In this document: in pieces, positions 54,402-57,290 of the stretch
How the letters are laid out: each line of letters starts with the position of its first letter
Position numbering within the stretch: position 1 is the stretch's first letter
Origin: Eledone cirrhosa
Taxonomy: Eukaryota
Length of the DNA: 64,000 nucleotides
Assembly: GCA_964016885.1 (NCBI GenBank)
Contig: OZ024743.1
Span: 221,402,001 to 221,466,000 of the forward strand
Direction of reading: 5' to 3'
Notes under the pieces: generated by a model
What the model was told of the DNA's origin: nothing
The model's input: only the letters and a program-made list of their open reading frames with translations
The model's database searches: none
Made by a program: the position numbers and the translations under genes

Positions 54402-55259
54402 TATATATATATATATGTGCATGCTACTGTACGTCTGTATACATATATGTATGTACGTATACATGCATACTTACATTTAAGTAAGTGCCATACTAAGAGT
54501 GAGAAATGAAATTTCGTTTTCATTTTGTTTCAATTTATCGTTTTCGGTATGCCTGACCGATTTAACTCACTCAATATGCAAATTAGGCTGCTCAGCCGTT
54601 AATTTTCATAAGGAAAGTATATACTTTCGAACGTTCAACTATCTGGCAGATGGGTAAACGGTGCTGATGATAGCTAACAAGCTTGAAACTAGTACATCGT
54701 TCCTGTGTCAGTGTTGAACAAAAAGGTGACGTGGTTGCCTTAACACCGTATGGCATAAATTCAGGCTGTTCAGTTTGTTTACAAACGAACAAAGTGACGT
54801 TATAATAAGCGCCGCTAAACTGATACGTGCATATATGTATGTGTACCTGTATGCATATGTATGTATATATGTATATATATATATATGTGCATGCTACTGT
54901 ACGTCTGTATACATATATGTATGTACGTATACATGCATACTTACATTTAAGTAAGTGCCATACTAAGAGTGAGAAATGAAATTTCGTTTTCATTTTGTTT
55001 CAATTTATCGTTTTCGGTATGCCTGACCGATTTAACTCACTCAATATGCAAATTAGGCTGCTCAGCCGTTAATTTTCATAAGGAAAGTATATACTTTCGA
55101 ACGTTCAACTATCTGGCAGATGGGTAAACGGTGCTGATGATAGCTAACAAGCTTGAAACTAGTACATCGTTCCTGTGTCAGTGTTGAACAAAAAGGTGAC
55201 GTGGTTGCCTTAACACCGTATGGCATAAATTCAGGCTGTTCAGTTTGTTTACAAACGAA
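54402..55259 (+). mobile_element. retrozyme/pLTR-like tandem repeat (period 470) with two minimal HHRs
   Basis: 54402-54789 matches 54872-55259; HHR aacggtg-CTGATGA-t agc taacaa gct t-GAAA-ctag-TA-catcgtt at 54657-54701 and 55127-55171. Confidence 0.85.
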
Positions 55260-55260
55260 G

Positions 55261-56721
55261 ATGGGTCTGGTCCACACGGCCATCTCAATGGCCAAGAAAA
55301 CCCACACAGATAGATGGAACGGGTGGACCAGAGCCATACGGACACCCGAAAACCACGATGAACTGAAGAAAATGATTGCACATGCGGTAGGGGCCAGCAT
55401 AAAATTAACCCTTAAGGAACATATGCTCAAATTTAATGGTAAAACATATGCCCAAGAGGAAGGAGCAGCCATTGGTGTTAGCATTGCAGGCGACATAGCT
55501 AACTTATTCATGGTATGGTGGGACAGTAGACTTAAACAAAAACTTAAAGAACAATTAGAAGACAGCTTAACCCTGATAATGTACTCCCGCTACGTAGATG
55601 ATATAAACATCGTAGTTAAGACACCCCCACTAAAGAACAGTCAGGAACTAGAGAAAAACACAATGGAAAGCATCCAGCAAATAGCAAACTCCATCCACCA
55701 GAGCATTAGAGTTACTATAGACTACCCAAGTAGACACCCCAACCATCGATTACCTGTACTAGACACAGAGCTCTGGTTAGATACCATTAACAACCAAAAA
55801 CAAATCCTCCATTCCCATTATGCCAAACCCATGACTTCCAAACATCTGATCCACCGAAACTCGGCCATTTCGGACCATACCAAAATCAACATACTGATTG
55901 CGGATTTGGTACGGGTGATGAGAAATGTGTCCCGCGTGTGCAACCCCGAAGAACTAGAGAGACACATACAACACTTCATCCACCGTATGCAGTTCTCTGG
56001 CTACAATCAGAGAGATAGAATCAGAGTGTATAAAGGAGCCAGAACCAAATGGGAAAAAATGGTAAATAATGACATAAATGGGACCTGCCCCTTGTATAGG
56101 AGCAAATTTTGGAATAGAATAGAAAGAACTAGGAACAAGGCCAATAGAATAAACTCATGGTATGATAGCAATAAATACCAGAGTGTAATGTTCATCAATA
56201 CAACCCCTAGAGGCGAACTAGCCTACAAATTTAGAAGGGCCCTAAATAAACATAAACTCAATATTAAGATAGTAGAAAGACCAGGTACCTCCGTAAAAAC
56301 ACTTATTAGCAGGACATACCCGTTCCAAAGACCCTCATGTATAGATAAGAAATGTATAACCTGTAAAATAAGCCCCCATATTAACTGTAAAACTAGAAAT
56401 GTAGTGTATAGCATAAGATGTACTGAAGGACAATGTAGAAACAAAAATATAGTGTACATAGGTGAGACAGCTCGTAGTATAGGGGAACGAATAAATGAAC
56501 ACTGGCGAGACCTCCAAGATAATAAAGAATCATCTGTGCTCTACCAACATGCCAAGATAGAACACAGGGGTAGATTAGAGAACATAGAAATAAAAATAGA
56601 ATCCACACACAGAAAAGATGCAATGTTTAGGCAAATTACAGAGGCAGTAAGCATAAAAGAATTACAACCAAAATTAAATAGAAAATATGAGTGGAACAGC
56701 AACATCACAACTTACAATTAA
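55261..56721 (+). CDS. Penelope-like element polyprotein, 5'-truncated: RT C-terminal half + Cys linker + GIY-YIG endonuclease (probably Naiad-like)
   Basis: QEEGAAIG...MVWWD, YSRYVDD, LPVLD, HYAKPM; CxxxxCxxC linker; VVYSIRC-x3-C...YIGET, R..EH, ..QH, E...LN. ORF is open to the stop. The track's first 36 codons (55153-55260) come from the upstream repeat. Clade call is an inference. Confidence 0.93.
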   Translation: MGLVHTAISMAKKTHTDRWNGWTRAIRTPENHDELKKMIAHAVGASIKLTLKEHMLKFNGKTYAQEEGAAIGVSIAGDIANLFMVWWDSRLKQKLKEQLEDSLTLIMYSRYVDDINIVVKTPPLKNSQELEKNTMESIQQIANSIHQSIRVTIDYPSRHPNHRLPVLDTELWLDTINNQKQILHSHYAKPMTSKHLIHRNSAISDHTKINILIADLVRVMRNVSRVCNPEELERHIQHFIHRMQFSGYNQRDRIRVYKGARTKWEKMVNNDINGTCPLYRSKFWNRIERTRNKANRINSWYDSNKYQSVMFINTTPRGELAYKFRRALNKHKLNIKIVERPGTSVKTLISRTYPFQRPSCIDKKCITCKISPHINCKTRNVVYSIRCTEGQCRNKNIVYIGETARSIGERINEHWRDLQDNKESSVLYQHAKIEHRGRLENIEIKIESTHRKDAMFRQITEAVSIKELQPKLNRKYEWNSNITTYN

Positions 56722-57290
56722 GGACAAAATGAAAACACACACAGGACAAAATGAAAACACACACACACATAAAACAAACAACTTACAATTAAGGACAAAA
56801 TGAAAACACACACAGGACAAAATGAAAACACACACACACATAGAACAAACAACCAACCAACAATAAATAAATAAATAAATAAACAAATAGATAAATGAAC
56901 ACAAACACACACAGACACCCGGATGTGGCGCATGCGCAAACTGAGCACACAACACACACACAGAAACAAAATGGCGTAGGATAGAAGAAAGGAAAGGCAC
57001 AGAAACAAAGAAAGGAATCTCCAGTCACTGAAGAGGTCACAGAGTGTGTGACGAAAGGACTATGACTATATATAAACAACTATCTGGTTGTGGAACCAAC
57101 CAACCAACCAGAAATTTATAAGTTTGTAAATTTGTAAATTTGTAAATTTATAAATATATAATAAATTGAAGTGAAAGCAACTGGTGCGTGTGTTTCTTAT
57201 TGGCAACATGACCCTCCCAAAGTATAACAATATCGGTTTCAACGCACGATTTCAGATAAAGAATCTTGCTAAACAAATTCAGAAACGAAA
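56722..57290 (+). mobile_element. PLE 3' UTR/pseudo-LTR with extension into the ORF start
   Basis: 71-bp internal duplication (56710/56781), HHR at 57023, then ATG-initiated segment shared with 16502; ends in (TA)n. Confidence 0.75.
57023..57067 (+). ncRNA. minimal type I hammerhead in PLE pLTR
   Basis: agtca-CTGAAGA-g-gtcaca gagtg tgtgac-GAAA-ggac-TA-tgact. Confidence 0.75.

Follow-up and report, generated by a model that had tools for sequence, protein, structure and literature searches.

The locus described here raises the question of how a tandem, ribozyme-bearing repeat came to lie in one insertion with a truncated Penelope-like element (PLE), and of what this arrangement says about the enzyme that mobilises the repeat. 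Two questions about animal retrozymes are left open in the accounts given in PMC7229834 and in a recent preprint (10.64898/2026.07.22.740005): which enzyme spreads them, and whether their arrays are born long by rolling-circle reverse transcription or are grown in place. In this study, the 470-nt retrozyme was likely copied into (TA)n sites by the reverse transcriptase (RT) of the PLE lineage found beside it, and a template switch during a single insertion is the probable source of the fusion. The following features were recognised in the window, by which is meant the whole 64,000-nt stretch of DNA analysed.

54402-55259, plus strand: retrozyme array, 1.83 units of 470 nt (sequence comparison, motif scan and 3'-end mapping)
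54657-54701, plus strand: type I hammerhead of unit 1, core at 54664, predicted cleavage after 54694 (motif scan, Rfam and variant table)
55127-55171, plus strand: type I hammerhead of unit 2, identical to that of unit 1, core at 55134, predicted cleavage after 55164 (motif scan)
55260-55283, plus strand: filler of 24 nt, an imperfect inverted copy of adjacent PLE sequence, a templated insertion of the fold-back type
55284-56721, plus strand: 5'-truncated PLE open reading frame (ORF) with RT motifs including YVDD, a CX4CxxC linker and, at the C terminus, a GIY-YIG domain
56722-57293, plus strand: PLE 3' UTR and pLTR, which take in the ORF start (first 86 nt, with the ATG at 57208) and end at the long 3' site of the family
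57023-57067, plus strand: the PLE's own type I hammerhead, of minimal form, with cleavage predicted after 57062
57294-57405, no strand assigned: (TA)n target tract at the 3' end
27797-28226, no strand assigned: older two-arm inverted retrozyme insertion, with a minus arm (27797-28136) ending at the long site and a short plus arm ending at the short site

The array, both hammerheads and the truncated PLE are real features. The initial annotation had read about 1.8 identical copies of a hammerhead-bearing unit, and the sequence agrees, since 54402-54789 equals 54872-55259 exactly (388 nt, period 470) within a total of 858 nt. When phase 1 is set at the base after the predicted cleavage site, the array starts in the internal TA run of the unit (phase 178) and stops at phase 95, which is not a normal 3' end of the retrozyme family. 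The hammerhead of unit 1 has a stem I of 7 bp, a stem II of 4 bp and a stem III of 2 bp with a palindromic cap, and it was matched by Rfam to HH9 at E=0.012 and 18.5 bits, below the gathering score of 52. Hammerheads with a 2-bp palindromic stem III have been reported to need a second copy for cleavage (PMC4209133). The hammerhead at 57023 was correctly taken to be distinct from that of the unit, as the two sequences differ; an Rfam search of 57023-57067 returned no match, and across the whole window the Rfam matches listed held only microsatellite noise. Further hammerhead-like core motifs were picked up by the motif scan at 8325, 17352-17358, 25698, 37113 and 42285, some of them as inverted pairs.

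The array and the PLE share one orientation, have no target DNA between them, and are bounded by TA at both outer ends, the 5' end of the composite (54402) included. The unit had been described as joined directly to the PLE; instead, the 24-nt filler separates them and the PLE begins at 55284. An open frame of 478 aa extends from 55285 to the stop at 56721, but about 2,320 nt of the 5' ORF are absent. Pfam searches of the frame gave RVT_1 (E=1.6e-4) and GIY-YIG (E=2e-4), both weak and under the curated cut-offs. The diverged free copy noted at 27.8-28.2 kb is also present, at 78-87% identity to the unit, but its supposedly different start is the 5' truncation point of an ordinary two-arm inverted insertion with 3' ends at the two fixed sites of the family. 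Elsewhere in the window, a palindrome of about 300 nt, almost perfect and flanked by TA (53723-54020), is either MITE-like or a tiny two-arm insertion, and two arrays of a 40-nt satellite lie at 8963-9477 and 11295-12060.

The retrozyme unit belongs to a large family. Its ribozyme core, searched as an exact 22-23 nt string, occurs 17,350 times in the assembly (3.0 Gb, 1796 contigs), and its arrays are spread over many contigs with fewer than one to about nine units per arm. Each unit carries a type I hammerhead core with its stems, which vary in loop 2 and at one G-U/A-U position of stem I, and contains no coding frame beyond low-complexity or read-through frames. On these sequence characters, the 470-nt unit is a young, high-copy non-LTR retrozyme of a new family with a predicted ribozyme. 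A circular fold of the unit scored far below shuffled sequences and was left unused, being driven by a self-complementary microsatellite. The retrozyme census comprised 64 loci sampled by position from the start of contig C1, together with a separate set of best-hit loci. The window array shows no difference in 302 nt from most units of L270, L271, L277 and L278, which places it in the youngest class, and only 2 of the 64 census loci lie within 0.5% of it. Alignment scores between the unit and the whole window PLE fell inside the shuffle range, with no significant similarity. A pLTR sequence relationship is reported for 24 of 57 Xenopus retrozyme families and is therefore not universal; none was detected between the unit and the window PLE. 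The pLTR-only comparison is weakened by A>G alteration of the upstream pLTR in the reference copy (L146), which leaves the whole-element comparison unaffected.

The PLE is likewise abundant, with 9,175 exact occurrences of its 22-23 nt ribozyme core. For its census, 80 loci were sampled by position, being the first 80 of 82 clusters counted from the beginning of contig C1, and best-hit loci were added. The window copy carries four private changes in 1438 nt relative to nearly all of 18 close copies, and resembles other young copies in this. The family shows the traits of EN+ elements, namely an RT followed by a C-terminal GIY-YIG domain, a pLTR with a hammerhead, a tail and inverted truncated copies; the CX4CxxC linker was read from the translation, and its value as a defining trait is taken from PMC8557442. 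A Pfam search of a longer PLE copy gave no hit, and the 25 longer homologues of the protein found at E<=1e-30 included none that was usefully named. The 3' end of a sister PLE family lies in the same window at 15900-16587; it has a separate hammerhead (about 16287) and agrees with the first family in its ORF start and in the geometry of the long site. For this sister family, the assembly holds 2297 candidates, and since the nearest relatives of this copy are about 96% identical to it, the copy is older.

Several further observations concern the PLE copies themselves. Clustered sense-strand A>G changes were seen in 2 of 258 pLTR alignments: in the upstream pLTR of L146 (contig C1:2082900-2089400, minus strand), where the hammerhead core is altered, and in L080 (7471-7838), they make up 26 of the 30 and 23 of the 29 differences, respectively, within 120 nt. 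These clusters likely reflect reverse transcription of ADAR-edited RNA, and a comparable A>G pattern has been described for L1-made insertions (PMC11702581). Many short PLE arms (L142-L221) have their start just before the hammerhead, at a distance of about 175-250 nt upstream from the pLTR ATG. This position may be the transcription start, and in these arms an uncleaved ribozyme was copied through. In L154 (4080-4191), the truncation point is preceded by a 22-nt motif that is similar to the PLE 5' end and is repeated several times in imperfect tandem, which suggests repeated re-priming.

The insertions of the two families share an anatomy, each family having two fixed end sites, separated by about 60 nt, at which the copies run into (TA)n. 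Among 104 mapped PLE 3' ends, 54 lay at ATG+26 (the short site) and 37 at ATG+86 (the long site), and 125 of 130 PLE ends were short or long and then ran into TA. For the retrozyme, 35 mapped 3' ends fell at phases 249-255 (17) or 307-315 (18), with modes at 252 and 314. The short or long site was used by 90 of 105 census retrozyme arms, 80 of them with TA within 60 nt; the other 15 fell in other end classes, mostly through missed landmarks. Moreover, inverted pairs combine one short and one long end, in 35 of 40 PLE pairs, in 23 of 33 census retrozyme pairs and in 13 of 14 pairs of the best-hit set. Purified PLE protein has been described to cut and extend both strands of AT-rich DNA in vitro and to start at two adjacent internal sites of its RNA, which explains the PLE tail (PMC11167929). 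The short-long pairing found here in both families matches the two internal start sites and two-strand priming of that report.

The best evidence for the mobiliser lies in three characters common to both families: a distance of about 60 nt between the end sites, the rule by which ends pair, and the target. Taken with the monomer-derived arrays discussed below, these shared characters make it very probable that the RT of this PLE lineage mobilises the retrozyme into (TA)n sites. The sister family has the same +26/+86 geometry and the unit has no significant similarity to the window PLE; therefore, the mobiliser is assigned to the lineage and not to one family. The initial annotation had suggested that the fusion would be a direct footprint linking the retrozyme to its mobilising enzyme. 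The link to a PLE-type enzyme is supported, but mainly by insertion anatomy throughout the genome and not by this joint, and the family-wide signature is more solid than the single fusion.

The same insertions bear on how arrays arise. Retrozyme arms reach about nine near-identical units (L274), and both arms are multimeric in L270 and L277. Array-specific variants are common to all units of an array in L277, L279, L280, L281 and L265, and in L277 they are shared across both long arms, while unit-private changes are not mirrored between arms. The longest arrays belong to the youngest class, in a set that was chosen by best hit and may favour long arrays. These patterns are fitted better by repeated copying of one monomer than by growth in place, in line with the proposal in PMC7229834 of PLEs and tandem cDNA, whereas local tandem amplification is suggested in the preprint (10.64898/2026.07.22.740005). 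A homogeneous linear multimer may also have served as template. Arm starts show no enrichment at the ribozyme cut, with 1 of 64 lying within 5 nt of it against 1.4 expected, by phases transcribed by hand.

At the joint, the array breaks off at phase 95, a position that matches neither the start sites nor the ribozyme cut; microhomology and overlap are absent. All 39 of the other PLE matches listed begin at 55284, and at the 29 other PLE loci examined the position is preceded by a different sequence common to them. The first 20 nt of the filler occur nowhere else in the assembly at up to one mismatch, and its best local match to the adjacent PLE in reversed orientation covers 16 of 18 nt, a score reached by none of 5000 shuffles. 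Fillers of 13-65 nt stand at ordinary two-arm joins (L158, L201, L066, L068 and L216), the first four of these loci being examples, and not a total, of PLE inversion joints with similar fillers. Short inverted fold-backs have been described at yeast DNA breaks, and fold-back fillers are presented in the same source as typical of DNA end-joining (PMC11724301). Because like fillers are found both at PLE inversion joints and at yeast DNA breaks, the filler marks a joining step, is silent on whether the partner was RNA or DNA, and is compatible with either.

Other accounts of the joint were considered and rejected. A 7-mer common to the array end and the PLE end is part of the PLE ORF start and therefore no target-site duplication; such a duplication is unreadable within TA, and flank searches of the assembly found no paralogous empty site. 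Ligation of cleaved RNA ends fails as an explanation, since the joint lies 95 nt from the ribozyme cut. Read-through transcription of a fused source locus was set aside on the finding that the filler is present only once in the assembly.

A template switch in one event is judged the probable origin of the fusion. The (TA)n tract would have been nicked by the PLE enzyme and synthesis primed at the long start site of the PLE RNA, as indicated by the 3' end at ATG+86 in TA. About 2 kb of PLE RNA would then have been copied before a stall, seen as the truncation at 55284, after which the cDNA end would have folded back and gained 24 error-rich bases, seen as the filler. Synthesis would have resumed at an internal point of retrozyme RNA and proceeded for 858 nt, passing the ribozyme cut site twice on a template that would be a circle or an uncleaved multimer, and the new end would have annealed to the left target end through the internal TA run of the unit. 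A switch of the PLE RT onto circular or tandem retrozyme RNA had been proposed from the outset; the switch is favoured, onto RNA that may have been circular or multimeric. A one-event origin is preferred because both parts are very young and because copies made by this enzyme show internal jumps. Non-collinear jumps in the same orientation, with 1-3 nt of overlap or a small filler, were found at 7 of 139 PLE loci (2 of 80 census and 5 of 59 best-hit loci), a count that omits five rows, four arising from an indel in the reference copy and one in a 3' UTR repeat. Four of the seven jump backwards or out and back, and L121 has a templated filler. Two-RNA insertions in one orientation are likewise attributed to template switching for L1 (PMC11702581). 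The entry at phase 95 beside a 24-nt filler, at neither an RNA end nor a microhomology, counts against a switch. No hetero two-arm insertion with one retrozyme and one PLE arm was seen among the loci examined, and composite-query searches, whose ranking was not designed for chimeras, returned only loci with one part or with parts separated by TA. In a fuller form, which we advance tentatively, one event would have the PLE enzyme prime twice, 60 nt apart, on a ribozyme-made RNA circle, roll for up to nine rounds per arm, and in the window jump from its own RNA onto the circle, thereby naming the mobiliser directly.

Recurrent fusion to this PLE family had been suggested as a check, and no second direct joint was found among a few hundred loci out of many thousands of insertions. 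At ten other loci, five of which belong to the 80-locus PLE census, the two elements lie no more than 300 nt apart and always with TA between them, and these (TA)n-separated neighbours keep alive an origin by insertion plus deletion, which we consider rather unlikely. On this account, a young single-arm array would already have occupied a TA tract when the PLE inserted into the TA at the 3' end of the array; at least about 160 nt of the array, together with TA, would then have been lost through resection or a subsequent deletion, and the gap healed by end-joining with a fold-back filler. Mobilisation of the retrozyme by a PLE would remain likely even so, but the joint would be no footprint of it. 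L070 and L165 present the precursor arrangement, with the array end facing the PLE 5' end. Of 14 single-arm census loci scored, 8 have a left flank matching a repeat, which resumes after the insertion in one and not in seven; these seven, out of the 80 census PLE loci, suggest flank deletion. The arbitrary end phase and the templated filler also fit end-joining. Against this, two events call for a coincidence of several rare things: the 5' side of the PLE must face an array end (1 of 80), the deletion must stop within the array, and the array must have a single arm and belong to the youngest class (2 of 64). Multiplied roughly, these frequencies give less than 1e-4 for each PLE insertion, whereas jumps are seen in about 3-5% of PLE loci; the latter figure is to be multiplied by whatever share of jumps ends on retrozyme RNA, and the switch is the likelier once that share exceeds about 1 in 500. 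Insertion hot spots could raise the rate of two events. By another one-event route, which is improbable, the left target end would have started synthesis at the TA run of an antisense retrozyme RNA, or a retrozyme cDNA made separately would have been captured, and the two DNA ends would have been joined at the filler. The fillers at ordinary two-arm joins and a like discontinuity inside the array of L272 are in keeping with this route, and inverted arrays would presumably yield antisense RNA, but the normal arms mapped copy the sense strand from two fixed sites and no clear antisense-primed arm was found among them.

The possibility that the assembly itself is at fault, through a false join of two repeats or a falsely duplicated unit, is the most improbable of all. 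The two copies are identical and the filler appears in no read or contig of four public runs, but identical multi-unit arrays are normal for this family, the filler is unique and structured, and the runs consist of other samples, of reduced-representation libraries or of simplified contigs, in which a private young insertion is expected to be absent. Among the 24 public runs known for comparison, filler depth was zero in X1, X4, X23 and X24, where contigs drop rare links and RAD reads sample few sites, and no bridging piece was present among the matches listed in X1, X4, X5 and X22. A RAD-read joint from 54978 to 55429 runs through a shared AT hexamer where many reads end and is likely a library ligation artefact. 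The silence of the runs on the junction is weak evidence either way.

A literature search, with most subscription journals and supplements outside its reach, returned no account of retrozyme-PLE chimeras or of shared start-site geometry. For the recently active pair described here, priming sites are predicted exactly on each of the two RNAs, one enzyme copy has an open frame (L071), and there is a candidate chimera; therefore, the question of the mobiliser is directly testable with the existing in vitro PLE assay.

The unit resembles animal non-LTR retrozymes in being a non-coding tandem repeat with a type I hammerhead per unit, in its thousands of dispersed arrays, and in coexisting with hammerhead-bearing PLEs. 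At 470 nt, it lies outside the range of about 170-400 nt given by Cervera and de la Pena 2020 (PMC7229834) and within the 51-972 nt given by Li, Clavereau and Pollet 2026 (10.64898/2026.07.22.740005). Those two sources argue for mobilisation by PLEs from shared motifs, co-occurrence and pLTR homology, whereas the present case shows insertion anatomy of the PLE type with no detectable pLTR homology; in contrast to the local amplification put forward in the preprint, the long arrays here belong to the youngest class. The PLE agrees with EN+ elements bearing a CX2-5CxxC linker, of the Neptune/Nematis type as described in PMC8557442, and with the PAc mechanism as described in PMC11167929, in its RT and C-terminal GIY-YIG domain, pLTR with a minimal hammerhead, inverted 5'-truncated partner, optional tail and AT-rich targets. 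Its tail is 60 nt, against 30-40 nt in those accounts, and its short and long ends are paired across arms; the likeness is one of features and not of a tree. The Chlamys non-autonomous elements such as MRC1 (PMC8557442) are comparable as non-autonomous PLE passengers with multicopy head-to-tail insertions, but they are described as generally sharing 3' sequence with an autonomous partner, in a clade without canonical hammerheads, whereas the unit shares geometry and no significant sequence. Finally, L1 chimeric insertions, namely two-RNA insertions and U6-L1 in the account of PMC11702581, likewise consist of two RNA-derived parts in one orientation within one insertion; in the present fusion, by contrast, the second part would have been entered internally and copied past its own start.
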